Assembly (NCBI GenBank): GCA_005222975.1
Contig: NJBI01000010.1
Span: forward strand, 19,921-83,920
DNA: 64,000 bases
Direction of reading: 5' to 3'
DNA from: Promethearchaeota archaeon Loki_b31
Lineage (GTDB): Archaea > Asgardarchaeota > Lokiarchaeia > Sigyniarchaeales > SOKP01
Shown here: positions 3,291-57,935 of the stretch, in pieces
How the letters are laid out: each line of letters begins with the position of its first letter
Position numbering within the stretch: the first letter of the stretch is position 1
Notes under the pieces: generated by a model
The model's input: only the letters and a program-made list of their open reading frames with translations
Databases searched by the model: none
What the model was told of the DNA's origin: nothing
Made by a program: the position numbers and the translations under genes

Positions 3291-5291
3291 TTAATTTTCA
3301 ATTTTGGTTGATATTTTCTTCATAACTTCGATTTCACTGCCCGCGATTCCTTTAATTTCTACCTCAAATTGCTTATTTCTGTAATACTTTAAATCGATAG
3401 CTCTTGCTGGACACGAAGAAACGCACACTCCGCAACCTTTACATTTTAACTCGTCAACAACGGCAATGCCATCTTCAGCTACGATTATTGCTTGATATTC
3501 GCATAATTTTTCGCATCTATGGCATCCCACGCAGAGGAGTTCGTCAACTTCAGCTATAATTAACTCTTGAACGATAGTATCGTAAGAAAGCAATGTAGCA
3601 GCTTTACTTGCAGCGGCTAATGCTGTAGAAACGGAATATGGGATGTTTTTTGGTCCCGCAGCACATCCACATATGTAAATCCCTAATCCCTTAGTTTCTT
3701 GAGGTTTTAAACACCCGTGAATTTCTGAAAGGAATCCATTGGGACCTTTACTAAGCCCCATTACATCAATTATTTTATCTGTACCTTTTGAAGGTATCAT
3801 CCCTGTTGAACACACTACTAAATCAAAATCCAAGTAAGAAACGTCTCCCTCTAAAGAATTGTCGTAAAAGAGTTTCATAGTTCCATCCTCGTTCAGCTTT
3901 ATATCGCCCGGTTTTCCCCTTATGAACATTACGTTCTGTTCTCTTATATTTCTATAATATTGTTCGTTTCCTTTATCTGTGGTTCTAATATCTATATAGA
4001 ATATCGTTATTTCCATATCGGGGTATTCTTGCTTTAACAATTGAGCGTTCTTCAAAGAAACGCTACAACAGACAGCAGAACAATAATTATTTCCTCTTAA
4101 CGTTCGGGACCCAACACATTGGATCATAGCTACTTTTTTAGGCGATTTTCCATCGGATATTCTATATACATGCCCCTCGGTTGGGCCAATTGGACTTAAC
4201 AGCCTTTCTAATTCGATTTGTGTAATGACATCAGGATAAATTCCATACATATACTCTTTACTTTTTAAAATGTTGTATTCGTCCCATCCAGTTGCGACAA
4301 TAACAGCGCCTACCGTAATATCGAGAATTTCAGGTTCTTGATCAAAATCAACCGCTTCACTAGGGCAAGTTCTTTCACAATTTTTACAGTCTATACACAC
4401 ATCCATATCGATTACGGCATACTTTGGCACTGCTTGCGGAAAAGGAATATAAACTGCTCTTCTTTCTCCAAATCCTCGATCAAACTCATTAGGGATCGTA
4501 ATTGGACATTCTATTGTGCATAAACCGCATCCTGTACACTTTTTTTCGTCAACATATCGAGGATTTTTTCTGATTTTTATCTTGAAATTTCCAGTTATGC
4601 CACTAAACTCTATAACATCGCTATAGGTCAGTAAAGTTATATTGGGATGTTTCGAAGCATTTACCATTATTGGGGCCAAAACTCATATTCCACAATCGTC
4701 AGTAGGGAAAATCCTATCGAGCTGTGCCATTTTTCCGCCTATGGTTGGCTCTTTTTCAACCAAATAAACAGATATTCCTTGACTGGCTAAATCTAATGCA
4801 GCATTCATCCCCGCAATTCCAGCACCAATTACTAAAGCTGCTTTAGTTACAGGTATTTCTTTTCGTGGAACAGCTTCTAATTCTCGAGCCCGATTTATTC
4901 CTGCTAATATTAACCTTTTTGCTTTTTTTGTCGCTTTTTCTTTATCGTCTTGATGAACAAAGGAGCAGTGTTCTCTGATATTTACCATTTCAAAATAGTA
5001 GGGACTTAACCCTGCTTCCTGTAATACAGTTCGGTATGTGGGTTCGTGAATCTTAGGAGTGCATGCTGCGACCACTACTCTATTTAAATCTAATTCTAAT
5101 ATATCGCTTTTAATAATTTGTTGCCCCGGATCGCTACAAGTGAAATTATTAACTCTTGCTATGACTACGTTAGGTAAAGGCTCAACAAAGTCTCTTAAAG
5201 CATCGCAATCAACGTGAGCTCCTATATTAACGCCTCATCTACAAATGTAAACTCCTATTCTTAGTTTATCGATGGTCTGTTTATCAGACAT
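3291..5291 (-). CDS. hdrA: Heterodisulfide reductase subunit A, selenoprotein (Sec19, Sec203), 666 aa
   Basis: One continuous frame from ATG 5291 (SD AGGTGA). IGVYICR-U-GVNI has TGA at 5235-5237 and FPTDDCGI-U-VLAP has TGA at 4683-4685; both align with HdrA Cys. Also GAGIAG FAD motif, CSAVCC and ferredoxin motifs. Joins track ORFs 4683..5075 and 3291..4679. Confidence 0.93.
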
Positions 5292-36725: not shown

Positions 36726-37658
36726 ATGAAAAAAATTAGTTTTATAGGACTTGATAATGCAGGTAAGACTAGTATTATCACTGTAATTACTAAAAGATTC
36801 GGTTTCGAAGAAGAGATTTCGAAATTGATGCCTACAAGAAAAATCGCACGTGATGCTTTCAAATTTTTAGGTGTTGAATTCATAAGAATGGATTTTGGGG
36901 GGCAATTACAATACAGAGAAGAATATTTGAAGAACCCAACTAAATACATTAGCGGAACCGACTTAATATTTTATGTCATAGATGCGCAAGATTACGACCG
37001 TTATGTTGAGACAATAGATTACCTTGACAAAGTTTTACTCTTCCTAAAAGAAGAACAAGACTACCCTCCAATGTGTATTCTTTTTCATAAATTCGATCCG
37101 CAACTTACTAAAGAAAAGGTAATAAACCAGAGAATTTTAACTATTAAACAAGCATTAACCCGATATTCAAATGATTTTGATATCTTTTTCTTTGAGACTT
37201 CAATATACGATATTAAATCAATAATGGATGCTTTTTCAAGCGGGTTATCGTTATTATTTGAAAAAATGGAAATGGTATCTCAATTATTTGCTGAGATGAG
37301 TAAAAATTACAATTCGATTATGATCGCATTATTTGACCCTAAAGGAATAACAATTGGGGAGTATTATCGGCCGCATTTACATTTATTGGAAAAAATGCGG
37401 ATTTACAATAAATATATAGATGCTCAAAAAAAAATAATAGCAGAAAACCGGACGCTATTAGAATTCTCAGACAAGTTTGAAAATGGCGATAGATATTCTG
37501 GATTGGTAGAAGTATTAAAGTTTGGGAACTTGGACTTCTATTTACTATTCATTATTGAAGAGGACGAACAGAATTTAGGAAATACTGTAGAAATGTTAAA
37601 TAAAATAGAATCCGCGAAACCACAAATGGAAAATATAATTCTCCAATTAATACAGTAA
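36726..37658 (+). CDS. Arf/Rag-like small GTPase with C-terminal roadblock/longin-like domain
   Basis: GLDNAGKTS, PT, DFGGQ, HKFD and TSI motifs; C-terminal IALFDPKGITIGEY alpha/beta domain. Confidence 0.87.
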   Translation: MKKISFIGLDNAGKTSIITVITKRFGFEEEISKLMPTRKIARDAFKFLGVEFIRMDFGGQLQYREEYLKNPTKYISGTDLIFYVIDAQDYDRYVETIDYLDKVLLFLKEEQDYPPMCILFHKFDPQLTKEKVINQRILTIKQALTRYSNDFDIFFFETSIYDIKSIMDAFSSGLSLLFEKMEMVSQLFAEMSKNYNSIMIALFDPKGITIGEYYRPHLHLLEKMRIYNKYIDAQKKIIAENRTLLEFSDKFENGDRYSGLVEVLKFGNLDFYLLFIIEEDEQNLGNTVEMLNKIESAKPQMENIILQLIQ

Positions 37659-37669
37659 AAGAGAAAGGT

Positions 37670-38746
37670 CTATTTAATTTTAAAAGTTTTAATAAAATCT
37701 TCCATTTCTTTCTTAGTTGGAATTAACTGATTAGTAATTTTATAAATCGCCGTATAAGTTGCAAATTCTATGCATTTGCTTAGAATATCTCTTAATTTTT
37801 CGAGATTCTCATCTTTATTTAATTGATCGAGCATTTCTTTATCTTTAACTAATTCAAATAATTTCGTCAAAAACCCCGCTGCAAAACAATCTCCTGCCCC
37901 CGTTCGATCGACAACTTCTTCAACTTCTATTCCGGGAAAAAAGATTTCAAAATTATCAGTTCTTGTAAAAGAACCTCCTTTTCCAGCCGTGTAAATTCGA
38001 ATTTTTGCGTATTTTTTAAATTTTTCATCGACCTGATCGATTGAAAAAGTCCCATTTAATATAGAGTAAGCATCCTTTAAGTTTAAAAAAAATAAATCAA
38101 ACTTTTGCTTGATTAATCCATCAAGTTGTTCGATTGATTGAACTTTTTGAGTCTCTATATTAAAAGCGGTTATCAAGCCCAATTTAGAACCATTTTCAAA
38201 CAATTTAATAAACTTTTTCGCAATAGGTGTTGAATATAATATTTTTGCATTCAAAAAAGCATCATCTTCTATTTCTATTCCTTCGAAGTTCATTCTGTTT
38301 TTTAAATTAGGAGCTAAATGGATTTTTGTTGTAAAGTCTGATTTTATAATAGTACTAACTGGTGTAATCTCATCTATTTGAAAAATATCATCGGTGTTTA
38401 TGCTTAGTTCATTTAGTTCTGTAATCATCCATTCACTTCCTCTTCCAATTACACTAATTAATTTAGTGAAAACTCCAAGTTTTGCGATAAATTCAGCTGA
38501 ATTGTTACCATTCCCCCCTCTCTTAAAGTAACAATGCCCCACTATTTTTTTGGGTGTTTCTGAGAACCCTTTTTTAACTATTTTTTCAAATAATTTTCTA
38601 TTAAGATCATCTGGGTTGAATTTGATAAAATCAATTATATTCGTTACTATTTTTTGAACTAATTGCCAATAGAAATCGCTTTCATAGTATAAATCTTGAT
38701 GTAATTCTCCTACAACAACAATATTCTTATTCAATTTGTTTTTCAC
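37670..38746 (-). CDS. PfkB-family carbohydrate kinase
   Basis: GGNGNNSA and VVDRTGAGDCFAAGF motifs. Confidence 0.9.
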   Translation of the reverse strand: MKNKLNKNIVVVGELHQDLYYESDFYWQLVQKIVTNIIDFIKFNPDDLNRKLFEKIVKKGFSETPKKIVGHCYFKRGGNGNNSAEFIAKLGVFTKLISVIGRGSEWMITELNELSINTDDIFQIDEITPVSTIIKSDFTTKIHLAPNLKNRMNFEGIEIEDDAFLNAKILYSTPIAKKFIKLFENGSKLGLITAFNIETQKVQSIEQLDGLIKQKFDLFFLNLKDAYSILNGTFSIDQVDEKFKKYAKIRIYTAGKGGSFTRTDNFEIFFPGIEVEEVVDRTGAGDCFAAGFLTKLFELVKDKEMLDQLNKDENLEKLRDILSKCIEFATYTAIYKITNQLIPTKKEMEDFIKTFKIK

Positions 38747-38763
38747 CCTAAAAAAATAATAAA

Positions 38764-38867
38764 CGCAGATGGAGGGACTCGAACCCCCGAACGCTTACGC
38801 GCACCGGCTTTTATGGTAATAGTGCATTACTCTCGAAGCCGGCGTCTTACCACTGGACCACATCTGC
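38764..38867 (-). tRNA. tRNA-Ser(CGA) with 22-nt intron at position 37/38 (intron 38810-38831)
   Basis: Acceptor stem GCAGATG/CATCTGC, anticodon stem CCGGC/GCCGG with TT-CGA-G, long variable arm, GGTTCGAGTCC T-arm and G discriminator; CCA is not encoded. Confidence 0.93.
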
Positions 38868-39000
38868 TTTAAATTATATGCTTTATTAGGATTAGTCGTA
38901 AAAAATATAAATTATTTTCTAATAACATTTTGTTTGGATTGAATAAAAGTAAGTAAAGTAAATTAAAAAAATTAGTAGCTGAAATAATATAAATCAGAGA

Positions 39001-39300
39001 TTAAGATTTAGGAACATAAATCTTTAATTTTAATGAAGGATCTAATAATTTTATTAAGCCTTCTTCTTCGTATTGCTTTAATAGCAGATTTACAGTTGAT
39101 ATTCTTAAATCATACTTTAGAGCTAAATCAGACGCTAAAATTGATTTCCGTTTCGAAAGTGATTCTCTAATTTCCTTTTCTATTGAATTAGGTATAAAAG
39201 CATCTCTTTCTACAATAGTGATTTGTTTTGATCTTCCGTATTTTCTACGCAAATTTAAAGTTGCTTTTCTGACCACTAACTTTTCTTCCTTTTCAGACAA
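39001..39300 (-). CDS. rps25e: Ribosomal protein eS25-like
   Basis: Basic N-terminus plus winged helix ILASDLALKYDLRISTVNLLLKQYEEEGLI...KIY. Start taken as TTG 39300 after GTGAT; the track start at 39330 is an alternative. Confidence 0.72.
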   Translation of the reverse strand: MSEKEEKLVVRKATLNLRRKYGRSKQITIVERDAFIPNSIEKEIRESLSKRKSILASDLALKYDLRISTVNLLLKQYEEEGLIKLLDPSLKLKIYVPKS

Positions 39301-39451
39301 TAGTATCACATTAAAAAATTGAAATGTCAAAAATTAAAGATAATTAAAATATTAAATATTTAAATTCTAATAAAATTTTTGATTTATAAACTGATTTAAG
39401 AAAGCTTTTTCCGTATCAAATAGCGAAGCAAATTAGATAGGCATACTCAAT

Positions 39452-40084
39452 TTGAGCGATGATTATTTTTTTAATATCAAACGTAAAAGACCAGAGGAAT
39501 TATATAAGAGCGCATTAGAATATTTTAAGAAGGATACTCTTTCTAGTTATGCCAAGTCTAAATCCATAATGCGTACACAAAGAAAAATTACATTGAGAGC
39601 ATTAGAAATAATGGAACTTAAAGAGAACCATTGTTTAATACTTGATGCTGGTTGTGGTCCTGGATTTGTGGCGATTTACCTGAATGAATTAGGACACACG
39701 ACAATAGCACTTGACATCATTTCAGATTTTCTCAATTTTTACGATATTAAAGATTTAAATCCCATTCTTGCTGATATGTGTTATCCTCCATTTCAACCAA
39801 GCATTTTCGACGCAATTATTTCCATTTCTGCTTTGCAATGGATCTACAAAGATTCAAATTTAGAAAAAAAGCGTTTAGATTTAATTGGTCTTTTTAAATC
39901 GTTTTATAGCATTCTGAAGCCTAACGGGAAAGCAGTTTTTCAATTTTATCCAAAAAATAAAATAATATTGGATGACATTGGAGATATTATTGCTGAGAAT
40001 ACAAAATTTAAGGGAAATTTCATTATTGATAACCCAAATAATCCAAAAAAAAGAAAAATCTTCTTAATCCTAAAAAAGGAGTAG
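39452..40084 (+). CDS. Bud23/WBSCR22-like SAM-dependent rRNA methyltransferase
   Basis: RPEE, Q..ITLRALE, LDAGCGPG, FDAIISISALQW, VFQFYPKN and IDNPNNPKKRKIFLIL match the blocks characteristic of eukaryotic Bud23. Confidence 0.85.
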   Translation: MSDDYFFNIKRKRPEELYKSALEYFKKDTLSSYAKSKSIMRTQRKITLRALEIMELKENHCLILDAGCGPGFVAIYLNELGHTTIALDIISDFLNFYDIKDLNPILADMCYPPFQPSIFDAIISISALQWIYKDSNLEKKRLDLIGLFKSFYSILKPNGKAVFQFYPKNKIILDDIGDIIAENTKFKGNFIIDNPNNPKKRKIFLILKKE

Positions 40085-40137
40085 CCATAAAATATAGTTA
40101 AAATTCTTTTGAATTTTTGATTTTCTTCCTTTTTCTA

Positions 40138-40185
40138 AACATAAGATTATAAGAACATAAGATTATAAGAACATAATATTATAAT
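40138..40185 (+). repeat. 16-bp tandem repeat, 3 copies
   Basis: AACATAAGATTATAAG twice, followed by AACATAATATTATAAT. Confidence 0.85.
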
Positions 40186-40261
40186 TTTATAAATTTGTTA
40201 AAAAAAAAGATGAAAAAGCATCATTGGAAAAAAGGAAAAATGAAGAAGGTGTAATTTAGAA

Positions 40262-41365
40262 ATGCCTGTCGGATTAGTTGTAATGAAATGGGATGAACGA
40301 GTCGGTACTGAAATCCTAGCGAAGTATCCCGAAGAAATCGTAATCACAGATAAAACTCTTATGCAGGTGTACAGCACGCACGAGTACAGTGGGGAATCGG
40401 GGATGATTAGTTTAATGGTTGGTTCATTAAACATTGCTTCATATTACACGGGACCAGAAAAAGGGTATTATATACTCTTACTTTTAAACCTGGACGATGA
40501 TCCTGATGCGTACGAAGGAGGCTTAATCGATACATCAAAAATCATTTTACAAAATCTTGAGGACGGTGCTTTTATACAATTAGTTCCTTCATTATTTAGG
40601 AGGGTATCTATGTATCCAACCTTAAACGAAGAGCAGCGATTAGCAATTACGTATCAAGACGACATAAAACGAATGATTATCAACCGTTTAAGGGAAGAAG
40701 GCGTAGTTTCAAAATCAGAGTTAATGATTTGGCTAAAAGATAGATATAAACAAGATTTTGTTGATTTAGAAGGAGTTGTCATAGAACTCATTAAAAGAGA
40801 CATCATAAAAGAAACATCAGTGAAGGGGATGCCTTCAGAATTAATCTTTCTAACAAACGATTTAATAATGATGCGCGTTCCAGCAATCCAACTTTTCAAG
40901 GATCCAAGCGATAGGGGCTTACCTTCCCAACTTAGCGATGATTACACAACAGAATCCAAGAAATTTTTTCAAAACTATCGTCCTTCAGAACAAGACAACC
41001 TAAAAGTTATAGAAATTCTCGTAAACCCTCAAGCCTACGAAGTATTGAGATTACTGAGGACCGCTATTGTTACTAAAAACGATCTTGAAAAACTGAAAAA
41101 GAAAGGAGTCGAAGACATAGATGATGTTTTGAAATCTCTATGGGAAAATCAGATGATTCAGGTTTTCCGAGACGATAGGAACAACGAATACTACGCTCTT
41201 ATTTCTGACTTTCACATAGCTTTAATATTTCCAAAATATTTATTGAATGTTATTAAAGCGGAATACGATAAAAAATCCAAAGCCGATCAAGTGCTAATAG
41301 AATATCTAAATGTTCTTGAAAATACGTTTTTAAATTTAAAATCAGCCACAAAATCAAAAGAATAA
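40262..41365 (+). CDS. Longin/uDENN-like N-domain plus tandem winged-helix protein, copy 1
   Basis: GLVVMKWDERVGTEILAKYP beta-hairpin pattern typical of uDENN/NPRL2 longins; two wHTH-like segments; 367-aa paralog of 45981..47084. Confidence 0.7.
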   Translation: MPVGLVVMKWDERVGTEILAKYPEEIVITDKTLMQVYSTHEYSGESGMISLMVGSLNIASYYTGPEKGYYILLLLNLDDDPDAYEGGLIDTSKIILQNLEDGAFIQLVPSLFRRVSMYPTLNEEQRLAITYQDDIKRMIINRLREEGVVSKSELMIWLKDRYKQDFVDLEGVVIELIKRDIIKETSVKGMPSELIFLTNDLIMMRVPAIQLFKDPSDRGLPSQLSDDYTTESKKFFQNYRPSEQDNLKVIEILVNPQAYEVLRLLRTAIVTKNDLEKLKKKGVEDIDDVLKSLWENQMIQVFRDDRNNEYYALISDFHIALIFPKYLLNVIKAEYDKKSKADQVLIEYLNVLENTFLNLKSATKSKE

Positions 41366-41373
41366 TTTTCGTA

Positions 41374-41390
41374 AATTTTTTTTTTTTTTT
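41374..41390 (+). terminator. Archaeal oligo-T terminator
   Basis: Long T run immediately after the stop of 40262..41365. Confidence 0.55.
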
Positions 41391-41747
41391 AATCTATTTA
41401 GTTTTAATGGGCAAAATTTTACTTACTAGAAGGATGTACTCACACCAGTTTCAATAGCACAGTCTGAAAATTTTAAGGTAAACAAATCTGCTCTTGGTTG
41501 TTCAGATAAATATATAATTAAAAAAAACTATATTAGATTATTTTACTAAAGATGGGAGAGTTTAAGTAATGAAATGAATTTATAAGGCATTAATTTTCTA
41601 TTACAATTATTATGTCAGAGTAATATTTAGAATTGTTTTATATTAGGGAAAAATTAAATATGAGATACTTGATCATTATTTTAATAATAAAAATTCTCGA
41701 AGAATTTTTAATACTTTATAACAAAAAGCATAAAATAGGTAATCTTA

Positions 41748-44700
41748 ATGAATAGAATTAAAAGCAAAAAGACTCAATTAAAGACATTATTAATGTTATT
41801 GATTTTGGGATTTACAACTATTTATATTAATTATGCTATGTTTACCATGACTAATTCAGATGTTTCTAATGAACCCGATAATGACATAAACATGCCAAAA
41901 ACAAATGAAGTTAGCCTTTCTGATTGGTGGAATGCATCATTCTTTTACAGAAAGCTTATTAATATTACGAATCCTAATGCTGTAGATTTAACTGATTTTA
42001 CCACCTATATTACTTTCAATTATACCGATTTAGTTTCTCAAGGGCATATGAATTCAAGTTTGTATGACATAAGAATAGTGGAAAATGGTATTTTGAGAAA
42101 TTATTATTACAGAATTGATTATCCTAATACTGATTACGCTACAGTATGGTTCAAGACAAACTGTTCTTCAAGTGCTACTGAATATGATACCTTCCTATAT
42201 TATGGAAACAATTCAGTTGGATGTGCTGAAAGTTATTATATGTCACAGGATCCTGAAGGGCTAATTTGGTATTCTTTTGAAAATGATAATACTGGAGTTA
42301 TTGTTGATAAATTAGCAAATTATAATGCTACAACATATAATAATCCGGGTCATACTGATGGAAAGGTGGGAGATTATTCACTCAGTTTTAACGGGAATAC
42401 TCAGTATTTGGGAATACAAGGAAAAAATTATAATACTGTTGGTGCTCTTGGTGAATTAACTATAGGTTTATGGTTTCAAACTTCATACAACGTAGGATCT
42501 TGGACTAATAATTGGGCATTCTTTGATTACGATCGTTCAGAATATTTTAATTTTTTTATACGACCAGATACAGGACAACTAGGATTCTCCACCTCTAGAA
42601 GTGGTATTGACGATTTTTATAGTGCTACTGGCGGATTTAATGATGGAGAATGGCATTATGCTGTAGCAGTGTATGATGGTACAAATAAATATATTTATAT
42701 TGATCCATCCACAGGCCAACCAGATAACACAGATTTGGATTCTCACTCTGGATTAGCAATTGGGACAGGGACATCCCGATACGGAATAATTGGAGACGGT
42801 TCTGAAGCAACTAGTGTGGGTACTCCCAGAAATAACATTTATTATCAAGGATTAATGGATGAGATTAGATATTATGAGCGTGCTTTAGCTGGCCAAGAAA
42901 TAGAATGGCTATTTAAGGATTATAAGTTATCAGCTTCCTTAAATGAAGAACAGCAACAATTAGCTCAAGTGATTTTCACTTGTTATGATGTTGATGGCAG
43001 GATTGTCCCTAATGCAGAAATCTCTTTAATTAACGGTACCGATGGATCAATGGTGGCAATTCAAAACACATCTTCAGACGGATCAGCAAGATTCAATCAG
43101 CTAAATTATGGTTCTTATAACATTACAATAAATTATACATTAAATTCTGGAATAGAGGGTGTTGTTTATGACAGTACTCAAAGCAAATATGGTGGTCCTA
43201 CTCAATATTTATTGACAGGGCTTTACCATACTTTTGATATTAATGTAGATATTTGGACCATAGATTTCGAAATTGTTGATTGGGATAATAATCCATTAAA
43301 CCACGGATATATAGAGATTAGTAATGATTCAAGTAGTCCTGTATTTGAGACATTACAACTCGATAGCGAAGGAAAAATGGTATTCCGATGGCATAATAGA
43401 GCCTCATATTATTATAAAGTCTATTATCAAAATGCAGATTATAACCCAGCTATTACACCATTAAATGCAAGTGATATTTATAGAAATACTTACATCTCAA
43501 ATCAAAAATATTATAGCCAAAGTATTAAAGTAAATGAGACAAATATCGCATCAGCTGGCTTCTTCTCTATAAAGGAAAGCATATTTTCGGGGGGTTCTTC
43601 GACCGAGCTAAGCTATAAAAAGATTTTGAAGGCTAATATTATGTTATTAAATATGATTGACCATTTGGATTCAGTGAAGATTTACTATATTAATAAGGAG
43701 AATAAAACTTTTACATCAATTCCAGGGGATCATCTAATTTTTCAAAATACATCATATGGAATAAGTGATACAACTGATTTCATTCAAATTGATATGAGAA
43801 ATCCAACAGAATCTAGTACCCCTCTAATTAATGATAATTATGAAGTTTTTGGACTGTATTTGGAAGTGGATGGAACAAATGCTACTCAGTGTAATGGAAT
43901 AATTCAAATAGATACTCTCGAAACTCTTAATGTTTATAATAAAACAGCTCTAGCTAAAATAAATATTAGAGTAGTAGATGAACCTCCAAATAGAGTCCCC
44001 GTTCCTAGTGTAATTGTTCATGTTTTCAATGGATCGATTTCAGACTCGAATTCAGTTGTTAACTTGACTACTGATCAAGATGGATATGCCTATGGAACCC
44101 AAAATTCAGATATAAGTTTCTGGTTTTTACGAGGTGTTTCATATAATTTTACTGTGGAATTTTTTGGAGCTCAAGATAAGCAATTCAGTGTAAACTATAC
44201 ATCTCCTTCCCAATGGATGCCGACATATCCAACTGTGGTTACAAATTATAATTACACTTTAGAAAGTGAATCTTCTATTATATTTGAATTAATAATTGAT
44301 TCAAGTAAATTTATAACACTGTTTGAAAATTCATATGGAGATATAGAAGCCGATTGGGGGGAATTTATAACATATTCAGTTAATTTCACTTATTCTACTG
44401 ATGGGGGTATTAGTTGGCATCCCATAACTTCAACTGATGAGATTCAGGCAACGATTAAGGATTTTGATGGCTTTCCTGTATTATACCAAAATTTACAATC
44501 TTTGGGTAATGGTAATTTCAGTGTATCTTTTAACTCAAGTGTCTTATCAGCAGGTTTTGATAGTATAATTTATACTATAGAAATCACAGGAGAAATATCC
44601 GGTTATGGATCACCTGGCATTGAAACATATGTCCTCCAACTTTTAGCTACTCCGACTTCCTCAAATGTCCATGATTATGACAATCCTACACAAACTTTAA

Positions 44701-45980
44701 CTCAAATTACTCAGTATTACAACGAATTAATTAATATCACAGTTTCATATTTCCCGACATCTAGTCCAACTTTTTTATTACACAACGCGATTCTAAGTTA
44801 TAGTTGGGATTATGGATCAGGATTTAATATAGGTGAAGATCCAATCAATCCTGGTTATTATTCATTTGAAATTAATACCTCAGCAGCGCCTACTACTGGA
44901 ACATACAGCATTGATATTAGTATTGAGTTAGAAAATTATACAAGAAGTAATTTTGCTATACTTATGGATATTAAACCAAGATTTACGACCTTAAATGACA
45001 CTAGTACATTATATTATGTCTCAATAGATGGTTGGATCCACGATGCGTTTAATTTAACCTTTGAATATAAAGATACTACTGGTACTGCTAATTTTAGGGT
45101 TGGAGATCTAGAACTAGCATACTATTATTGGTATCAACTTGCTGATGATGGAACACCCATAGGATCCCCAAGTTCTAATATTGATCTTATAGAAAATGAG
45201 GATAACTTATACATATTAGACTTTGATACAGAAACGAGAGATATTGGAAAATACGCGATATTTATAACCTTACAAAAGAATAATTATGAAGCAAGGAATG
45301 CATTTATCAACCTAGAGATTAAAGAACGGACAATTGACCATCTGATTTCAGCTACAGGATTAAGTGGTTCACGAATAAATGTTATCCAAGGTGAAAATAT
45401 TATTATTACGCTAGATTTAAAAGATGAGTCTAGAAATATGGCTGAATTAACAGGAGCTATAGTGAGTTTAACAATAGGTTCTTCCCAATATTCTTTTGTG
45501 GAGCTTGGGAATGGTACATATCAACTAGTTTTTCCAACTGAAGATTTAAATGCTTTCTTTTTACCCCAGACTCTATTGGGAACCATTAAAATATCTAAAG
45601 AGGATTTTGTAACTGAAAATGTTTCAATAACAATAGTTATTGGAATGACTGAAATTTTCCCTGGATTTCCAATATTCTATTTCTTAATAATTGTTGTTGG
45701 AGTTGTTGCTGTTGTTGGTAGCTTAGTGACATATCGGCAAATACAAAGAGCACGGATTCCTACTTTCGTTAAGAAAGTAAGAGAGATGAGCAAAGGTATA
45801 AAAGGAAGAAAATCTATTTCAGACTCGCTTTTATATCCATCTAAGGAAGAATTTATCATAAAAAGACTAGGAGATAAATGGGAAATGCTTGGATTATCGT
45901 TAGAAGAAATCTTGGGAATTGATACTAAGAAGAAAAAGAAATTACCGGAATCTACAGAAGGTAAAGTAGGTGCTTTCTAA
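41748..45980 (+). CDS. Large cell-surface glycoprotein (DUF2341-like, LamG and Ig-like domains, C-terminal TM and ~80-aa cytoplasmic tail)
   Basis: N-terminal hydrophobic signal, WWNASFFYRKLINI, LamG motifs NDGEWHYAVAVYDG and GLMDEIRYYERAL, dozens of N-x-S/T sequons, and TM FYFLIIVVGVVAVVGSLV. Confidence 0.88.
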   Translation: MNRIKSKKTQLKTLLMLLILGFTTIYINYAMFTMTNSDVSNEPDNDINMPKTNEVSLSDWWNASFFYRKLINITNPNAVDLTDFTTYITFNYTDLVSQGHMNSSLYDIRIVENGILRNYYYRIDYPNTDYATVWFKTNCSSSATEYDTFLYYGNNSVGCAESYYMSQDPEGLIWYSFENDNTGVIVDKLANYNATTYNNPGHTDGKVGDYSLSFNGNTQYLGIQGKNYNTVGALGELTIGLWFQTSYNVGSWTNNWAFFDYDRSEYFNFFIRPDTGQLGFSTSRSGIDDFYSATGGFNDGEWHYAVAVYDGTNKYIYIDPSTGQPDNTDLDSHSGLAIGTGTSRYGIIGDGSEATSVGTPRNNIYYQGLMDEIRYYERALAGQEIEWLFKDYKLSASLNEEQQQLAQVIFTCYDVDGRIVPNAEISLINGTDGSMVAIQNTSSDGSARFNQLNYGSYNITINYTLNSGIEGVVYDSTQSKYGGPTQYLLTGLYHTFDINVDIWTIDFEIVDWDNNPLNHGYIEISNDSSSPVFETLQLDSEGKMVFRWHNRASYYYKVYYQNADYNPAITPLNASDIYRNTYISNQKYYSQSIKVNETNIASAGFFSIKESIFSGGSSTELSYKKILKANIMLLNMIDHLDSVKIYYINKENKTFTSIPGDHLIFQNTSYGISDTTDFIQIDMRNPTESSTPLINDNYEVFGLYLEVDGTNATQCNGIIQIDTLETLNVYNKTALAKINIRVVDEPPNRVPVPSVIVHVFNGSISDSNSVVNLTTDQDGYAYGTQNSDISFWFLRGVSYNFTVEFFGAQDKQFSVNYTSPSQWMPTYPTVVTNYNYTLESESSIIFELIIDSSKFITLFENSYGDIEADWGEFITYSVNFTYSTDGGISWHPITSTDEIQATIKDFDGFPVLYQNLQSLGNGNFSVSFNSSVLSAGFDSIIYTIEITGEISGYGSPGIETYVLQLLATPTSSNVHDYDNPTQTLTQITQYYNELINITVSYFPTSSPTFLLHNAILSYSWDYGSGFNIGEDPINPGYYSFEINTSAAPTTGTYSIDISIELENYTRSNFAILMDIKPRFTTLNDTSTLYYVSIDGWIHDAFNLTFEYKDTTGTANFRVGDLELAYYYWYQLADDGTPIGSPSSNIDLIENEDNLYILDFDTETRDIGKYAIFITLQKNNYEARNAFINLEIKERTIDHLISATGLSGSRINVIQGENIIITLDLKDESRNMAELTGAIVSLTIGSSQYSFVELGNGTYQLVFPTEDLNAFFLPQTLLGTIKISKEDFVTENVSITIVIGMTEIFPGFPIFYFLIIVVGVVAVVGSLVTYRQIQRARIPTFVKKVREMSKGIKGRKSISDSLLYPSKEEFIIKRLGDKWEMLGLSLEEILGIDTKKKKKLPESTEGKVGAF

Positions 45981-47084
45981 ATGCCTGTCGGATTAGTAGT
46001 CATGAAATGGGACGAAAGAGTCGGTACTGAAATCCTAGCGAAGTATCCCGAAGAGATTGTAATCACGGATAAAACTCTTATGCAGGTGTACAGCACGCAC
46101 GAGTATAGTGGGGAATCGGGGATGATTAGTTTAATGGTTGGTTCATTAAACATTGCTTCATATTACACGGGACCAGAAAAAGGGTATTATATACTCTTAC
46201 TTTTAAACCTGGACGATGATCCTGATGCGTACGAAGGAGGTTTGGCTGATGCATCACGGATAATCTTACAAAACCTTGAAGACGAAGGGTATGTGCAGCT
46301 TGTTCCTTCGCTTTTCAGGAGATTGTCAGTGTATCCAACCTTAAACGAAGAGCAGCGATTAGCAATTACTTATCAAGATGAAATTAAAAGGATGATTATC
46401 AATCGTCTAAGGGAAGAAGGTGCTGTCTCAAAATCAGAGTTAATAGTTTGGTTAAAGGACAAGTATAGACAAGGATTTGTCGATTTAGAAGGCATATTAA
46501 TTGAATTGATTAAAAGGGAGCTTATTAAAGAAACTTCAGTAAAGGGGATGCCCTCTGAATTGATTTTTCTTACAAATGACATTTTAATGTTGCGAATTCC
46601 TCCAGTTCAATTACTCAAAGATCCTGCCGATAAAGGGTTGCCTTCTCAATTGGCCGCAGACTATAGAACTGAAACGAAGAAATATTTCCAAAATTATCGT
46701 CCTTCTGAACAAGACAACCTAAGAGTCATAGAAATTATCATAAATCCTCAAGTTTACGAGACTTTGCGATTGTTACGAACTGCAATTGTAACTAAAAACG
46801 ACCTTGAGAAGTTAAAAAAGAAAGGCGTCGACGACATTGACGAAGTTTTGAAAATATTATGGGAAAGGCAAATAATTCAAGTATTCCAAGACGATAGAAA
46901 CAACGAATATTACGCGCTAGTGTCAGATTTTTTCATAGATAAGATATTTCCAAAATATTTGTTGAATGTAATCAAAGCTGAATACGAGAAGAAATCAGAA
47001 GCTGATCAAGTTTTACTAGAATACTTAACTGTCCTCGAAAACGCATATCTTAACTTAAAATCAGCAGTTAAATCCGAAGAATAA
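45981..47084 (+). CDS. Longin/uDENN-like N-domain plus tandem winged-helix protein, copy 2
   Basis: First 88 aa are identical to copy 1; the ATG directly abuts the TAA of the surface-protein gene. Confidence 0.7.
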   Translation: MPVGLVVMKWDERVGTEILAKYPEEIVITDKTLMQVYSTHEYSGESGMISLMVGSLNIASYYTGPEKGYYILLLLNLDDDPDAYEGGLADASRIILQNLEDEGYVQLVPSLFRRLSVYPTLNEEQRLAITYQDEIKRMIINRLREEGAVSKSELIVWLKDKYRQGFVDLEGILIELIKRELIKETSVKGMPSELIFLTNDILMLRIPPVQLLKDPADKGLPSQLAADYRTETKKYFQNYRPSEQDNLRVIEIIINPQVYETLRLLRTAIVTKNDLEKLKKKGVDDIDEVLKILWERQIIQVFQDDRNNEYYALVSDFFIDKIFPKYLLNVIKAEYEKKSEADQVLLEYLTVLENAYLNLKSAVKSEE

Positions 47085-47238: not shown

Positions 47239-48555
47239 ATGGATAGTACTGAAAAATATTTAGATACGCCAGAAGCAATAGGTTTAGATGGTATTGATTT
47301 AGAGAAATATATTATCGCAAGTTATATCATCAAGCGACCAAAAGGAATGAATGTGAATTATTTATCCCGATTTGCGGCAATTGAACAATCGACAGGAACT
47401 TGGGTTCGAGTACCGGCTGAAACTGAAGAAGTGAGAAAAAATCACGTGGCTCGTGTATTAGGTGTCTATGAAATACCACATTACGAATATGTGATTCCAA
47501 AGGATGTTAAGGAGCGATTATATTTCGTTCAGATTGGTTTCCCAATAATAAATATTAAGGGAGATGGAATTCCAATGCTGCTTACTTCAGTTATTGGTAA
47601 TATTAGTATTACACATGGACTGAAATTAGTTGATCTCGCGTTTCCAAAAGAATATTTAAAAGATTTCAAGGGTCCAAAATTTGGAATTGATGGGCTTAGA
47701 AAACTTTTGAAAGTGCCCGAAAGGCCATTGTTAAATAATATGGTAAAACCATGTACGGGACATACATGTGAAGTCGCTGCGGACTTAGTATATCAAGCTG
47801 CAGTTGGAGGTTGTGATGTCGTAAAAGACGACGAGTTAATTTCAAACCCATCGTTTAACACTTTGGAAGACAGAATTAGCGCAGTTATGGAAAGTATCGA
47901 TAGAGCAGATTCAGAAAAAGGAGAGAAGACGCTATATACAATAAATATCACCAGTAAATTCCCAGAAATGTTTGAATACGCTGATAAAATGATCGAAATG
48001 GGCGCAAATGCTTTAATGATAAATTATCTCACAGCTGGTTTCGAAGCATTAAGAGCTGTTGCTGAAGATCCTTCAATAAAAGTACCAATCTTAGGACACA
48101 TGGATTTTGCAGGCGCATATTTTGGTGGCCATTGGACAGGATTAACAAGCATGATAACTCTTGCTAAATTTCCAAGAATGTGTGGAGCTGATACAGTTGT
48201 AATTCCTGCACCGTATGGTAAGGCAGAGATATTAGATGAAAGGTACGAACAAAATTTAAAAACTCTCAGATATCCTTGGAAACACATAAAGCCTACACTC
48301 CCGATGCCAAGTGGAGGAATCACGCAAGGAATGGTCGAGAAAACCATGAAAGAAGCAGGTACAGATATTTTAATTGGAAGTGGAGGGGGAATTCATAGCC
48401 ACCCAGATGGTCCAATATCAGGTGCAAAAGCATTTAGGCAAGCAATTCATGCTGTAATGCAAGGGATAAGTGTAAAGGAGTACGCTAAAGAACACAAGGA
48501 ATTGGGAGTAGCCCTTGGAGTGTGGGGTACTGGAAAGACTGCTTTAATCGAATAA
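47239..48555 (+). CDS. RuBisCO-like protein (form IV)
   Basis: EQSTGTW, GPKFG, DVVKDDE, PSGG and GGGIHSHPDG motifs. KPCTG and GHMD replace the KPK and HR motifs of true RuBisCO. Confidence 0.88.
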   Translation: MDSTEKYLDTPEAIGLDGIDLEKYIIASYIIKRPKGMNVNYLSRFAAIEQSTGTWVRVPAETEEVRKNHVARVLGVYEIPHYEYVIPKDVKERLYFVQIGFPIINIKGDGIPMLLTSVIGNISITHGLKLVDLAFPKEYLKDFKGPKFGIDGLRKLLKVPERPLLNNMVKPCTGHTCEVAADLVYQAAVGGCDVVKDDELISNPSFNTLEDRISAVMESIDRADSEKGEKTLYTINITSKFPEMFEYADKMIEMGANALMINYLTAGFEALRAVAEDPSIKVPILGHMDFAGAYFGGHWTGLTSMITLAKFPRMCGADTVVIPAPYGKAEILDERYEQNLKTLRYPWKHIKPTLPMPSGGITQGMVEKTMKEAGTDILIGSGGGIHSHPDGPISGAKAFRQAIHAVMQGISVKEYAKEHKELGVALGVWGTGKTALIE

Positions 48556-48600: not shown

Positions 48601-49557
48601 TTATTCTAAGTATCTTCTTAATAAAACTCGTATATTGGGATTGAAATCATTATTTTTTACAACCTCCACAATAGAATTGCCACATAAGTCTAAATACTGG
48701 AGTTTTGGTAATTGTTTGAGGAATTTTAGATTCACTGAATCGCTAATATTATTGTTTGATAATATTAGATGAGTCAAATTTTTTAGTTTAATCAATTCTT
48801 TTATGTTTTTAATTTGATTATTTGAAAGATCCAATCTTTTTAAATGATTTAAATTGTGCAAACCTGATATCTCAGAAATTTCCCGAATGTTGTTTTTCCA
48901 ACCCCATGGAGTGCCTTTAACTTCAAATTCAAGATAATCTGATAAATCTAATTTTTCAACCAGTAATGTATTAGGGTCTAGTTCAAAATATACATTCGGA
49001 ATTTTTTCTATTAGGTGTTTTATAGTTAAATAATTAATTAAAATCTCAGCTAGTTGTGTAGTAGTAAAATTTTTAATTCTATTTGTTTTGAGTAGAGCTT
49101 TTAGAGATTTTTTATACTTTTTATTCTCGAAGCCTTTTTCAATACTCAAAAATTGAATCTTTTTAATTTTCTTCAATTGTTCGATTAAAATTAATTTAGA
49201 ATCATGAGAATTCATTTTTACTAAATATTTTATTACAGTAATTAAGCAATTATAAGAAGTTTCGTGCTGAATCGTCCATTTAAATAGAGTTAAAGTATTA
49301 TGGAGATAATTTTTACCAATATAATTAGCAGAAGCGTTCCTTACAATCTCACTTGAATCAGAAAGTAATAGGTTTTCGAAGAAATTGAATAAATTCTCAT
49401 CTTTTAAATTTATTTTACCTAAGATATTAATAGAATCTGCTCTAATTATATCTTCATCGTAGTTCTCAATGATAGAAATCAACAAATTAGTAGCAGAAGA
49501 TTTATCTAAGAGTTTATTACAGTACTCTTCAAATATAGTTTGAGGATTTAACTCCAT
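48601..49557 (-). CDS. HEAT-like plus leucine-rich-repeat protein
   Basis: FFENLLLSDSSEIVR HEAT-like N-domain; LKRLDLSNNQI-type LRRs. Confidence 0.85.
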   Translation of the reverse strand: MELNPQTIFEEYCNKLLDKSSATNLLISIIENYDEDIIRADSINILGKINLKDENLFNFFENLLLSDSSEIVRNASANYIGKNYLHNTLTLFKWTIQHETSYNCLITVIKYLVKMNSHDSKLILIEQLKKIKKIQFLSIEKGFENKKYKKSLKALLKTNRIKNFTTTQLAEILINYLTIKHLIEKIPNVYFELDPNTLLVEKLDLSDYLEFEVKGTPWGWKNNIREISEISGLHNLNHLKRLDLSNNQIKNIKELIKLKNLTHLILSNNNISDSVNLKFLKQLPKLQYLDLCGNSIVEVVKNNDFNPNIRVLLRRYLE

Positions 49558-55039: not shown

Positions 55040-56422
55040 TTAAATATAAACCTGAAGCCCCTTTTCTTCTAATTTTTTCAAAAAATAGGGGTAAATTTTA
55101 AGGTTATTTTCTGTTAAATATAATTCTTCTAAAAGATCAAGAGAATTAAGGGTATCTGGAAGTTTAGTTAATTTATTCCTAGACAAGTTTAAAATTTTTA
55201 AATTTTTTAAATTTCCAATTGTATCTGGAATCGTTTCTAACTGATTATCGCCTAAATTTAATAGCTCTAGGGAATTAAGTGAGCCTATTGACAATGGAAT
55301 GTTTACTAACTCGTTTCTTTCAAGATCTAAAGATTTTAGAGATGATAAATTACCTAATGAGGAAGGAATGGTAGTCATTAAATTCCAACTCAAATTCAAG
55401 GTTATTAATGATTTTAGGGATAAAATAGAATCCGGAATTTTTGTTAGTTTATTGTCGTGAAGATTTAAATCTTTTAGGTTTATTAAATTTCCAAAATCGT
55501 TAGGTAATAGTGTAAGCTGGTTTAGTCTTAAATTTAATTGTTCTAATGAGATTAAGGAACAGATTGAGGTTGGAAGATTTTGGAGTTCATTCTTCCAAAG
55601 TAACAATTCTTTAAGCTTAGAAAGCAAACCTATATTCTCAGGAAGTTTATTTAAATTATTTACATTTAAATTAAGGTATTCTAATGAAATTAAAGTGCTA
55701 ATCCACTCTGGAAGTTCTGTTATTTGATTATATCTTAAAGTTAATTTTTTGAGAGAAGTAAGGTATTTAATAGCAATAGGTAATTTTGTTAACCCTTTGA
55801 ACATAAAATCTAACTCCACAATTTTACAACGGTAAATGGTATACTTCAATCTCCAATAAGTCTTTTTCAAGTAAATCAATATAAAATAATTAATCAAAAT
55901 GTCAGCTAATTCCATACGAGTAAATGGTTTCGCACCCTCAGCAAAGCTCAATGTCTCAAAGCCTATTTTAAAATCTTTATCATCTATTTGTTTTATCTCG
56001 TGAATCAAGATGAGTTTTGCGATGCGATCATTTCTTTTTTCTAAGTTTTTAATTATATTTATTAATAAATCAAAAATCGTATCCAAACAAGTTTGAGATT
56101 CTTCATGATGAAGAGCCCATCTTAGTGGGTTCAAAGCTTTCTCTTTAAAATTATATAGTAAAATAAGAGCGGCTTCGTTTCTGATTTTTTCATCTGAGTC
56201 CGAAATAAGTAAATTTTCGAAGAATCTAAAAATCTCCTCCTTCTTTACGCCAGTATTTTTTAAATTATCCCCAATACTTCTTAAAATTTGAATGCTTTCG
56301 TAGCGGTCTTTAACTTTTGTACTATTTTCTATTAATGCGATTAGTTGTTTAACTGCCGATGATACATCGATTATTTTTTTGTTAAATTCGTCAAATATCT
56401 TAGTCGGTGTGCGTCTCGTAAT
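55040..56422 (-). CDS. HEAT-like plus leucine-rich-repeat protein, probable ATT start
   Basis: The frame extends 96 codons upstream of the track start (TRRTPTKIFDEF...FFENLLISDSDEKIR) and is colinear with the paralogs' N-termini. ATT at 56420-56422 follows GAGGGA and an in-frame TGA. About 10 LRRs of 23 aa. Confidence 0.85.
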   Translation of the reverse strand: MTRRTPTKIFDEFNKKIIDVSSAVKQLIALIENSTKVKDRYESIQILRSIGDNLKNTGVKKEEIFRFFENLLISDSDEKIRNEAALILLYNFKEKALNPLRWALHHEESQTCLDTIFDLLINIIKNLEKRNDRIAKLILIHEIKQIDDKDFKIGFETLSFAEGAKPFTRMELADILINYFILIYLKKTYWRLKYTIYRCKIVELDFMFKGLTKLPIAIKYLTSLKKLTLRYNQITELPEWISTLISLEYLNLNVNNLNKLPENIGLLSKLKELLLWKNELQNLPTSICSLISLEQLNLRLNQLTLLPNDFGNLINLKDLNLHDNKLTKIPDSILSLKSLITLNLSWNLMTTIPSSLGNLSSLKSLDLERNELVNIPLSIGSLNSLELLNLGDNQLETIPDTIGNLKNLKILNLSRNKLTKLPDTLNSLDLLEELYLTENNLKIYPYFLKKLEEKGLQVYI

Positions 56423-56435
56423 GTAAATCCCTCAA

Positions 56436-57935
56436 CTATTTATAAATTATTAATCCATTTTTTTCTAATTTACCCAAAAAATCGGGTGTTTCTTCAATAT
56501 TATTAAAGTTTAAATCTAGAATTTTCAATGATTTAAGATTCTCAAGAGATTCGGGAAGTTTTTTCAATTTATTCCCCCATAAACTCAATATCTCAAGAGA
56601 TTTAAGAGATCCCACACAATCGGGTAAATTTTCAAAACGATTCCAACTTAAATTTAAAACTTTTAAATTAATTAACGAGCTAAACGACTTAGGTAAAGAA
56701 GTTAAATTATTATTCCATAGAGTTAATTCTTTAAGCGTAGAAATTTTACCAATTGATTCAGGAAGTTCAATCAACTTATTATCAAATAATTGTAATATTT
56801 CTAATGATTGCAACGACCCAAGCCAAGAAGGAAGTGATGTCAATTTATTTCCTCCCAAACCCAATTTTTTAAGAAATTTAAGAGGCTTTACCCATTTAGG
56901 AAGTCTTTCTATATTGTTCAATCCCAAATCTAATTGTTTAAGAGAAGTCAATCGCTTGAAAGAACCCTTTAATTTGCTTAGATTGTTTCCGTGCAAATCT
57001 AAGACTTCTAACTTTGATATATTCTTTATTGTTTTTGGCAAAGAAGTTAATTCATTAGCTCTTAAATCTAGATGTTTTAACGATTTTAAAGAGCCAATAG
57101 AAAGTGGTAAACTTTTTAGTTTATTATATCTCAAATTCAACACATTCAAGGCCGTTAGTAAACCAATAGAATGAGGAATTGATTTAATTTTATTATAACT
57201 TAAATCTAAGTGAATCATTGAAAATAAAAAGCCAATAGTTTTAGGTATCATAGTAAGTCTATTAAATTTTAAATCTAGAATTTCTAATGATGTTAAAAAT
57301 TCCATAAAATCAGGAAATTTGTTCAAAATTGTCCATCCAAAAACGTGACTACTAACATCGGATAAATCTAATTCAAAAATCAGACCCTCTTTTACCTTAA
57401 AATTAATTTGACCAAATCTTTTTTCCAGATCGGCTACAATAAAATAATTCTCGATAATTCGTGAAAGTTCAAAACTCGAGAAACTTTCAATATCTCTTTT
57501 TTTAAATAAGAGATTTAAATTTTCAACAATTTTCTCATTTCTTATTTTTTTTATTTTATCAATTAACAAGGATTTTGATTGAGGAGTATTAATTTTTCCT
57601 AATATCTTTGAGATCGCTAACAAACATTTTAAGGATTCTTCATGTTTCAAAGCCCATCTCATTGGTTCAAAAGCATTATCCAAAAATAACTTTTCTATGA
57701 CTTTAATTGAATTAAACCTTATAGATTCATGAGAATCTGAAATGAGTAAATTTTCTAATAGTTTGAAAATATCATTAGATTTAGCATCAATCTGAGAGAG
57801 GGTGTTAATGCTTTCAATTCTTGAATCTAAATTATCACTATTGTCTATAATCGATATTAATTGATTTATCGCTGAAATTTTATCTAACTTCTTGTTCTTG
57901 TAATTTTTATTAATTAATTTTGGAGATAATTCCAT
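56436..57935 (-). CDS. HEAT-like plus leucine-rich-repeat protein
   Basis: LLENLLISDSHESIR N-domain followed by about 12 LxxLxLxxNxLxxLP repeats. Confidence 0.9.
   Translation of the reverse strand: MELSPKLINKNYKNKKLDKISAINQLISIIDNSDNLDSRIESINTLSQIDAKSNDIFKLLENLLISDSHESIRFNSIKVIEKLFLDNAFEPMRWALKHEESLKCLLAISKILGKINTPQSKSLLIDKIKKIRNEKIVENLNLLFKKRDIESFSSFELSRIIENYFIVADLEKRFGQINFKVKEGLIFELDLSDVSSHVFGWTILNKFPDFMEFLTSLEILDLKFNRLTMIPKTIGFLFSMIHLDLSYNKIKSIPHSIGLLTALNVLNLRYNKLKSLPLSIGSLKSLKHLDLRANELTSLPKTIKNISKLEVLDLHGNNLSKLKGSFKRLTSLKQLDLGLNNIERLPKWVKPLKFLKKLGLGGNKLTSLPSWLGSLQSLEILQLFDNKLIELPESIGKISTLKELTLWNNNLTSLPKSFSSLINLKVLNLSWNRFENLPDCVGSLKSLEILSLWGNKLKKLPESLENLKSLKILDLNFNNIEETPDFLGKLEKNGLIIYK

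Follow-up and report, generated by a model that had tools for sequence, protein, structure and literature searches.

The prokaryotic small GTPase MglA and its roadblock-family partner MglB control surface adhesion complexes in Myxococcus. This pair is also treated by Tran et al. 2024, who listed a sigma-adaptin-like longin-Arf architecture among the Asgard GTPases, reported that the GTPase genes of MK-D1 are generally not in operons with roadblock or longin genes, and found genome layout to be of little help for pairing GTPases with regulators. NPRL2 and NPRL3, subunits of GATOR1, have been defined as a longin domain with two or more winged helix-turn-helix (wHTH) repeats (Levine 2013, PMC3747258). 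Liu et al. 2021 (asCOGs) described Asgard families in which a longin domain is joined to a small C-terminal domain resembling NPRL2, as well as families whose longin is NPRL2-like, and 'Ca. L. ossiferum' is reportedly enriched in NPRL2-like longin families (PMC9834061). The locus analyzed here lies in a stretch of 64,000 nucleotides from Promethearchaeota archaeon Loki_b31 (contig NJBI01000010.1, positions 19,921 to 83,920), hereafter called the window, which belongs to a metagenome-assembled genome (MAG) of 3.5 Mb that is 92% complete with 6% contamination. Two copies of a 367-amino-acid protein, hereafter called the module, are encoded on either side of a gene for a type-I surface protein of 1410 amino acids, the receptor (41748-45980, +, from its translation and Pfam). 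Copy A is a stand-alone gene (40262-41365, +) and copy B directly follows the receptor gene (45981-47084, +). At the gene level the module is firmly joined, by way of a conserved tail, to giant adhesin-like proteins with a single membrane pass; it is confidently modeled as a longin domain and two winged helices in the NPRL2/NPRL3 architecture, and very probably belongs among the NPRL2-like longin families of Liu et al. 2021, judged by their description. An earlier reading of the sequence, hereafter called the original prediction, had proposed a system of surface receptor, NPRL2-like longin protein and Rag-like GTPase at this locus, and the four genes that it named (a GTPase at 36726-37658, copy A, the receptor and copy B) were all confirmed at the coordinates given here.

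The ATG of copy B abuts the TAA of the receptor, a junction already noted in the original prediction and read directly in the sequence. A Shine-Dalgarno-like AGGTG (45968-45972, +, likewise a direct reading) lies 8 nucleotides upstream of this ATG, within the receptor's final codons, and AGGTG also precedes copy A. A third module copy on contig C87 of the same genome, 60% identical, directly follows a paralogous receptor of 1460 amino acids with a TAATG overlap, and the two receptors are 40% identical over residues 376-1400. Six-frame translations were searched across 301 sampled genomes of the phylum, in which f1, f2 and so on to f28 are working labels for GTDB families and f1 is the family of the window. 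Receptor-tail coding sequence was found directly upstream of the module in all 29 of the 29 best loci from other genomes. Among the cluster representatives, those ranked first each run without a break from ectodomain through transmembrane (TM) helix and tail to module in one chain of 588-2548 amino acids, and uninterrupted fused frames of 700-3009 amino acids were recovered by the six-frame searches in at least nine genomes. The fused forms keep the tail motifs, which suggests that the tail does more than tether. At one locus (G210:C9:430340-464784) five fused genes of about 2655-2678 amino acids stand in tandem at a spacing of about 8.3 kb, each ending in the module. In the sister family f2 the module abuts proteins of 1368-2598 amino acids that carry a signal at the N-terminus and a TM helix at the C-terminus; in f9 the order is reversed, with proteins of 2360-2391 amino acids and the same topology following the module at a gap of 0. 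Similar receptor-module pairs occur in f3, f5, f15, f17, f23 and f28, and module followed by receptor is the usual order in classes beyond Lokiarchaeia. Abutting pairs, natural fusions and the phylum-wide tail motif together bear out the functional tie of the 367-amino-acid protein to a large TM protein that the original prediction had drawn. The acidic module (isoelectric point (pI) 4.85) and the basic receptor tail are complementary in charge, and we infer that the module binds the receptor tail.

The receptor was predicted to be a LamG/Ig surface protein with a tail of about 80 residues, and these parts were all recovered. They comprise an N-terminal hydrophobic signal or anchor (41781-41849, +), a LamG/ConA-like domain (Laminin_G_3, residues 217-385; 42396-42902, +; Pfam E 1.6e-10), a CarboxypepD_reg-like beta-sandwich of immunoglobulin (Ig) fold (residues 414-463; 42987-43136, +; Pfam), one C-terminal TM helix (residues ~1307-1329; 45666-45734, +) and an 81-residue basic tail. 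Sequons of the form N-x-S/T number 33 in the ectodomain against 20.1 +/- 4.1 in shuffles, an enrichment that makes the label 'glycoprotein' plausible for this protein. The tail (residues 1330-1410) holds two elements, RIPTFVKKV and WEMLGLSLEEILG. The former is the juxtamembrane RIP.FVKK motif of the original prediction (residues 1336-1344; 45753-45779, +), and the second tail element, W-x-x-L-G-L-S-L-E-E-I-L-G, spans residues 1378-1390 (45879-45917, +). The juxtamembrane consensus, TM-[RK][IV]P-x-x-[IV]K[KQ][IV], is common to module-adjacent receptors of at least eight families and is followed by a second element, G/L-L-x-[DE]-L. It is found in f1, f2, f9, f15 and f28 and in looser form in f5 and f17, and the ectodomains above this shared tail differ, being Ig-like, invasin-like or LamG. 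The second element is kept in Lokiarchaeial tails and in the fused forms, and tails of f9 and f28 carry a related G-L-x-[DE]-L element after the juxtamembrane motif. When the genome of the window was scanned in six frames for a TM helix followed by the tail motif, only three places were returned, namely the receptors of the window and of C87 and, on contig C61, a membrane protein with a duplication, and all three adjoin a module or a module-like gene. The C61 protein (C61:115554-118946, -) has about 1110 amino acids and is apparently duplicated internally, with two TM helices followed by the motifs RFPKPVRKV and KYPVEVRKV. Divergent to it lies a diverged module-like gene (C61:119087-120353, +) with 29% identity over residues 120-345.

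The module was modeled with AlphaFold2 on 60 diverse homologues, and the full-length model had a predicted local distance difference test (pLDDT) score of 92.3 and a predicted template modeling score of 0.85. Residues 1-120 fold as beta-beta-alpha-beta-beta-beta-alpha-alpha, which is longin topology, and are followed by winged helices at residues 121-204 and 240-322 and a long C-terminal helix. In copy B the corresponding regions are 45981-46340 (+) for the longin domain, 46341-46592 (+) for the first winged helix and 46698-46946 (+) for the second, with the long helix after it; copy A likewise encodes a longin domain and two winged helices. The C-terminal 247 residues folded alone with a pLDDT of 96.2. 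When the model was compared with the PDB by Foldseek, the first six ranks were chains of GATOR1 NPRL2 and NPRL3 (E 4e-5 to 5e-4, probability 0.92-0.99), in alignments of 330-440 columns that span both halves of the module, with Mon1-Ccz1, Fuzzy-Inturned and BLOC-3 below them. TM-scores to NPRL2/NPRL3 were only 0.22-0.26, which indicates that the domains of the module are arranged differently. By VIA-align, the longin domain superposed on NPRL2 (7t3b_B) with a Z of 12.0 and a root-mean-square deviation of 2.6 A over 119 residues. The C-terminal half matched at Z 8-9.5, the first winged helix resembling MarR, MecI and the cullin WHB domain and the second ArsR, SmtB and Phr; taken alone, this half retrieved only generic winged helices by VIA. 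These results agree with the original prediction on a longin domain followed by two winged helices, in the order and size of NPRL2.

Sequence searches of the 367-amino-acid protein against Pfam, NCBIfam and the PDB returned nothing significant, and 60 family members gave only sub-threshold wHTH matches in Pfam. Neither DENN nor uDENN was matched by the module in Pfam, its C-terminal part being two winged helices, and the sole weak DENN match in the genome lies elsewhere (C61:18892-19122). Residues 121-367 led only to unnamed Asgard clusters in the ESM Atlas. The family comprises 801 homologues, is present in 198 of the 301 sampled genomes and is 80-97% identical across many Lokiarchaeial MAGs. 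Within the alignment of 60 family members, W10, D11 and G15 are conserved at 92%, 82% and 93%, and the residue after G15 is proline in only 12% of rows and otherwise threonine, alanine or valine; orthologues in f9 have the glycine-proline form, WDDELGP. W33-D34 and G38-P39 are essential in human C9orf72, and the GP motif was already known in Asgard longins (PMC12290439). At one f15 locus (L046, G012:C1), a stand-alone longin paralogue of 160 amino acids (3349-3831, -), starting MPKGLIILHWDDATGP and carrying the full WD-x3-GP motif, lies directly upstream of a full-length module.

Elsewhere in the phylum the module is accompanied by another GTPase, a protein of 275-315 amino acids with an N-terminal domain of about 120 residues and an Arf-family G domain. 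The G domain matched Pfam Arf at E 1e-12 to 1e-23 and Arf1 at 1.5e-14, and a profile of ten N-domains matched AP-2 sigma at E 1.2e-6 (profile positions 1-98 to residues 1-94) and both AP-3 sigma and delta-COP at 0.004. From the AP-2 sigma match and the Arf G domain, this phylum-wide GTPase is predicted to join a sigma-adaptin-like longin and an Arf-like G domain in one protein. It immediately adjoins the module in f3, f10 (four genomes), f11, f14, f17 (two loci), f21 and f28, and stands beside it in divergent orientation in f15. One of the f17 loci reads GTPase, module and a 2026-amino-acid receptor as overlapping genes. In f9 the GTPase follows the module, either at once or with the receptor in between, the order module, receptor, GTPase being seen in 14 genomes at a spacing of 6.7-7.6 kb and direct adjacency in others. 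The module has another orthogroup in f9 (L055-L079; N-terminus MPVAMLLIDWDSKIGA), which regularly has a thymidylate-kinase-like gene upstream and no adjacent receptor, and an Arf-like GTPase lies 0.7-1 kb downstream in 12 of about 19 of its loci. In the genome of the window, the third module copy has as its convergent neighbor, 96 nucleotides away, the gene of a 529-amino-acid protein (C87:22270-23859, +) in which an N-terminal longin-like domain is combined with an Arf-family G domain and with bacterial TSP3 repeats, which bind calcium. Both close module loci of this genome have a GTPase within 4 kb, and 31 GTPase-like places were counted in its 3.5 Mb. The N-domain of the longin-Arf GTPase is present, in multiple copies, in 282 of the 301 genomes and is too widespread for phyletic co-occurrence to inform. 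A maximum-likelihood tree of 35 module sequences, with a midpoint root for drawing only, showed three deep clades, each with members adjacent to a receptor and members adjacent to a GTPase. This recurrent neighbor upholds, across families, the link of the module to small GTPases that was first drawn from proximity at the window. The type of GTPase named there was not the consistent partner, which elsewhere is the sigma-adaptin-like longin-Arf fusion instead.

The module gene that the original prediction placed upstream of the receptor is copy A, which is 84% identical to copy B over 367 ungapped residues, with residues 1-88 identical. Third-position identity between the copies is 0.80-0.97 in the first 270 nucleotides (40262-40531 against 45981-46250) and about 0.5-0.6 downstream. 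This contrast goes beyond what purifying selection alone would leave, and the 5' 270 nucleotides are a gene-conversion tract that covers most of the longin domain (residues 1-90). All three module copies of the genome fall into a late Lokiarchaeial clade of the module tree. A T15 tract (41376-41390, +, direct sequence reading) starts 11 nucleotides past the stop codon of copy A and resembles an archaeal oligo-T terminator, so that copy A probably has its own transcript and the receptor and copy B probably form a bicistron. About 80 nucleotides upstream of copy A lies a tandem repeat of about 16 nucleotides, ACATAAGATTATAAGA, in about 2.8 copies (window 40139-40184), which could be a promoter or regulator site. 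Copy B has no such repeat upstream, where the corresponding region is the coding end of the receptor.

Comparison with the described systems places the cassette near several of them. With NPRL2/NPRL3 the module shares its domain order and nearly its size (367 amino acids against chains of 362-408 modeled residues), the occurrence as paralogue pairs, and a genomic or physical tie to Rag/Arf-class GTPases with roadblock or longin domains. It differs from them in lacking sequence-profile membership and a conserved arginine finger, in the orientation of its domains, in having no DEPDC5-like partner that was seen, and in its attachment, by tether or by fusion, to a surface protein with a single TM pass. 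C9orf72, part of the Arf GTPase-activating protein (GAP) complex C9orf72-SMCR8-WDR41, resembles the module in the beta1-beta2 loop, where W-D-x-x-x-G-[P/T/A] has the spacing of W33-D34 and G38-P39, and neither protein carries an arginine finger of its own. However, the C-terminus of C9orf72 is a DENN domain whereas that of the module is two winged helices, the Lokiarchaeial module copies have threonine in place of the proline, and no SMCR8-like arginine-bearing partner was identified. The pairing of AP sigma or zeta/delta-COP with Arf1 is echoed by the GTPase of the cassette, with its sigma-adaptin-like longin and Arf-like G domain, and by the third partner, a membrane protein that, like coat cargo, has a conserved cytosolic linear motif. 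In contrast to those coats, longin and GTPase are on one polypeptide here, no large adaptin subunits occur in the cassette, and the module itself is nearer to GAP-type longin proteins than to adaptins. MglB is a single roadblock domain that acts as a homodimeric GAP and exchange factor for guanine nucleotides (GEF), and the MglA/MglB system lacks winged helices, docking on a receptor tail and fusion of its genes with adhesins. Among the families of Liu et al. 2021, fusions were described only to two-component signaling domains, and their DENN operon appears distinct from the cassette, the module being without a DENN domain. No description of the surface-protein coupling, the tail motif or an operon with longin-Arf GTPases was found in a literature search. 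Asgard NPRL2-like longin families and longin-platform/small-GTPase systems are known; here such a system is wired to transmembrane surface proteins.

We somewhat favor the reading that the module is a receptor-tail adaptor coupling adhesin-like surface proteins to a small-GTPase switch. The receptor would be a type-I protein with a variable lectin- or Ig-like ectodomain and a short basic tail bearing two conserved linear motifs, and the module an acidic cytoplasmic adaptor attached to that tail, in this genome by non-covalent contact following coupled translation and in relatives with fused genes by the covalent bond of a single chain. Its longin domain, of the NPRL2/C9orf72/uDENN class, would pair with the cis longin or roadblock domain of Asgard Arf/Rag-like GTPases into a platform like the eukaryotic ones that regulate or read the nucleotide state of small GTPases. 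The state or position of the surface protein would thereby be coupled to a GTP switch, with the module as regulator or nucleotide-dependent partner. Both the longin-longin pairing and a GEF, GAP or effector activity of the module are conjectural. The proposal made for this locus in the original prediction, a transmembrane module linking adhesion or glycan sensing to small-GTPase regulation, is partly supported, a role in glycan sensing being speculative.

Several observations weigh against the reading as an adaptor to a GTPase switch. By VIA, the longin domain matches VAMP7, Ykt6, a Lokiarchaeal roadblock-longin protein, Lst4, DENND1 and FLCN within about 1 Z of NPRL2, and the C-terminal half alone had no Foldseek match at E<=1e-3, with NPRL2 and NPRL3 outside the top 50 by both Foldseek and VIA. 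None of the 60 family members had a Pfam NPR2 or NPR3 match at E<=1, and none matched DENN. Membership of the NPRL2 family by sequence accordingly fails, with no Pfam NPR2/DENN match in the 60 members or the genome; a search of the genome with PF06218 was empty, as were the control genomes. Within residues 1-120 no arginine reaches a conservation of 80% (R13 stands at 57%), and the beta4-beta5 turn (residues 63-68), the presumed equivalent of the NPRL2 finger, is variable. An arginine-finger GAP mechanism of the NPRL2 type is unlikely for the module given the lack of a conserved arginine in its longin domain; the original prediction, too, had seen no obvious arginine finger. On the side of the GTPase, the sigma-longin-Arf protein is mostly not adjacent to the module within Lokiarchaeia, and when module and GTPase N-domain were compared profile to profile, the match fell short of significance (probability 2.5%), which lends no support to a specific kinship between the two longins. 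The genomes of one family are not independent samples. Finally, the unrelated genes of a pfkB kinase, eS25 and a Bud23-like methyltransferase, two of them on the other strand, lie between the GTPase of the window and the module, and the nearest relatives of this GTPase in f2, f3 and f21 lie tens of kb away or on other contigs.

This GTPase (36726-37658, +) is a Rag/Gtr1-like small GTPase of 310 amino acids with an N-terminal G domain and a C-terminal domain of about 100 residues. It matched Pfam Gtr1_RagA (PF04670) at E 1.2e-23 (84.3 bits against a cut-off of 22) and Arf at 4.8e-14. The best PDB sequence match was 8yl2_A (5.6e-36), followed by Sar1, Arl3, RagC and Gtr1, with RagC and Gtr1 at about 1e-6. 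Residues 185-310 led by language model to Gtr1_RagA clusters (0.88) and had no Robl_LC7 match in Pfam. The gene ends 2.6 kb upstream of copy A, and its f1 orthologues are found 1.7-9 kb upstream of a module, with both genes on one strand, in at least 25 genomes from seven genera. In a complete f2 genome the distance to a module is about 30 kb for the nearest paralogue and about 63 kb for the best orthologue. As a conserved partner of the module this GTPase was rejected beyond f1, given the distant positions in f2, f3 and f21. With three genes in between and synteny in f1 only, its link to the module appears weak; the Rag-like GTPase of the original prediction is present at the distance given there and matches Gtr1_RagA, but is syntenic within one family. 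A search of the window for a second GTPase found none.

The same parts could be read without signaling, the module and the longin-Arf GTPase sorting, clustering, positioning or turning over surface proteins from the inside. The tail motif would then be a sorting signal, the module a tail-binding adaptor and the GTPase a membrane recruiter as Arf1 is for AP and COPI. We regard this as rather unlikely, and as a serious rival on account of the sigma-adaptin similarity of the GTPase N-domain, whose matches to AP-2 and AP-3 sigma and delta-COP (E 1.2e-6 to 0.004) come with an Arf1-like G domain. It would also account for a module without a catalytic arginine and for conservation that is confined to a short cytosolic linear motif on unrelated, variable ectodomains, as in eukaryotic cargo signals, and the bodies and protrusions of Lokiarchaeial cells carry numerous complex surface proteins (PMC9834061). 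However, no large adaptin or coat subunit was found among the cassettes examined, cultured Asgard cells are reported to be without observable internal compartments (PMC12290439), and the nearest structural matches of the module are GAP-type longin proteins rather than adaptins.

Two further explanations are disfavored by the charge of the module and by its position in the fusions. As a co-translational chaperone or targeting factor for its giant neighbor, with no role in regulating GTPases, the module would fit the translational coupling and the 1:1 gene pairing. The SRX domain of SRalpha has a longin-like fold and, for membrane targeting, cooperates with SRbeta, which is Arf-like (Levine 2013, PMC3747258), and the complex of signal recognition particle and receptor (SRP-SR) was among the longin matches at Z 9.5. 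A fused module is made last, C-terminal to the TM helix, and cannot act before insertion; moreover, copy A is free, some module paralogues have no receptor next to them, and a conservation of 80-97% exceeds what would be expected of a private chaperone for a fast-evolving ectodomain, so that we hold this role to be very improbable. Control of the receptor genes by the module as a membrane-associated transcription regulator, its winged helices binding DNA and its longin domain sensing, is barely credible. Some members of the family do give weak matches to HTH_20, ArsR, TrmB and TFIIE-alpha (best E about 1e-4), the two winged helices superpose on MarR/MecI and ArsR/SmtB/Phr repressors at Z 8-9.5, and the tandem 16-nucleotide repeat stands upstream of copy A. 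But these wHTH matches in Pfam are all below the curated cut-offs, the module is fused to the C-terminus of a membrane protein of 2-3000 amino acids in many genomes, and the winged-helix pairs of NPRL2/3, ESCRT-II and cullins, of which ESCRT-II and cullin WHB are among the matches, bind protein. The acidic pI of the first (5.2) and second (4.9) winged helices and of the whole protein (4.85) also argues against DNA binding, net charge being only a proxy for it.

The remaining genes near the cassette are of mixed kinds, and the closest homologues of the window's proteins are from MAGs labeled Promethearchaeota or Lokiarchaeota. The window is AT-rich, with a GC content of about 30%. Between the Rag-like GTPase and copy A lie the pfkB kinase (37670-38746, -) and the divergent pair of eS25 (-) and a Bud23-like S-adenosylmethionine-dependent methyltransferase (+) at 39001-40084. 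Just 3' of copy B is a homologue of the RuBisCO large subunit (438 amino acids; 47239-48555, +; RuBisCO_large E 2.4e-51), which probably has no relation to the cassette. Farther downstream are three leucine-rich repeat (LRR) proteins (48601-49557, 55040-56134 and 56436-57935, all -), two of them with HEAT repeats, and the gene upstream of the C87 receptor (C87:29654-30694) appeared LRR-like by eye; LRR genes and receptor genes may form a recurrent neighborhood.

Small GTPases, and likewise longin and roadblock proteins, number in the dozens in Asgard genomes, and the GTPases and their regulators are unmatched as partners. The cassette offers concrete triads, conserved across the phylum, each made up of a surface-protein tail motif, a longin adaptor resembling NPRL2/C9orf72 and a GTPase, longin-fused Arf-like or Rag-like, whose members can be expressed and tested together for binding and for GEF or GAP activity. 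It also connects the 'complex surface proteins' of Lokiarchaeial cells (PMC9834061) with the cytoplasmic machinery of eukaryotic signature proteins, and bears on how components of cell-cell contact, protrusions and membrane trafficking became linked before eukaryogenesis. It is conceivable, and we suggest it with some doubt, that Asgard archaea already held a logic known from eukaryotes, in which a tail motif, a longin adaptor and an Arf/Rag-type GTPase act together. If so, the cassette, with its longin-winged-helix protein docked on giant adhesins and acting with the sigma-adaptin-like longin-Arf GTPase, would be a shared precursor or an early counterpart of the longin GAP complexes GATOR1, FLCN and C9orf72-SMCR8 and of Arf-driven cargo adaptors, and archaea would have receptor-coupled small-GTPase signaling or sorting at the plasma membrane.

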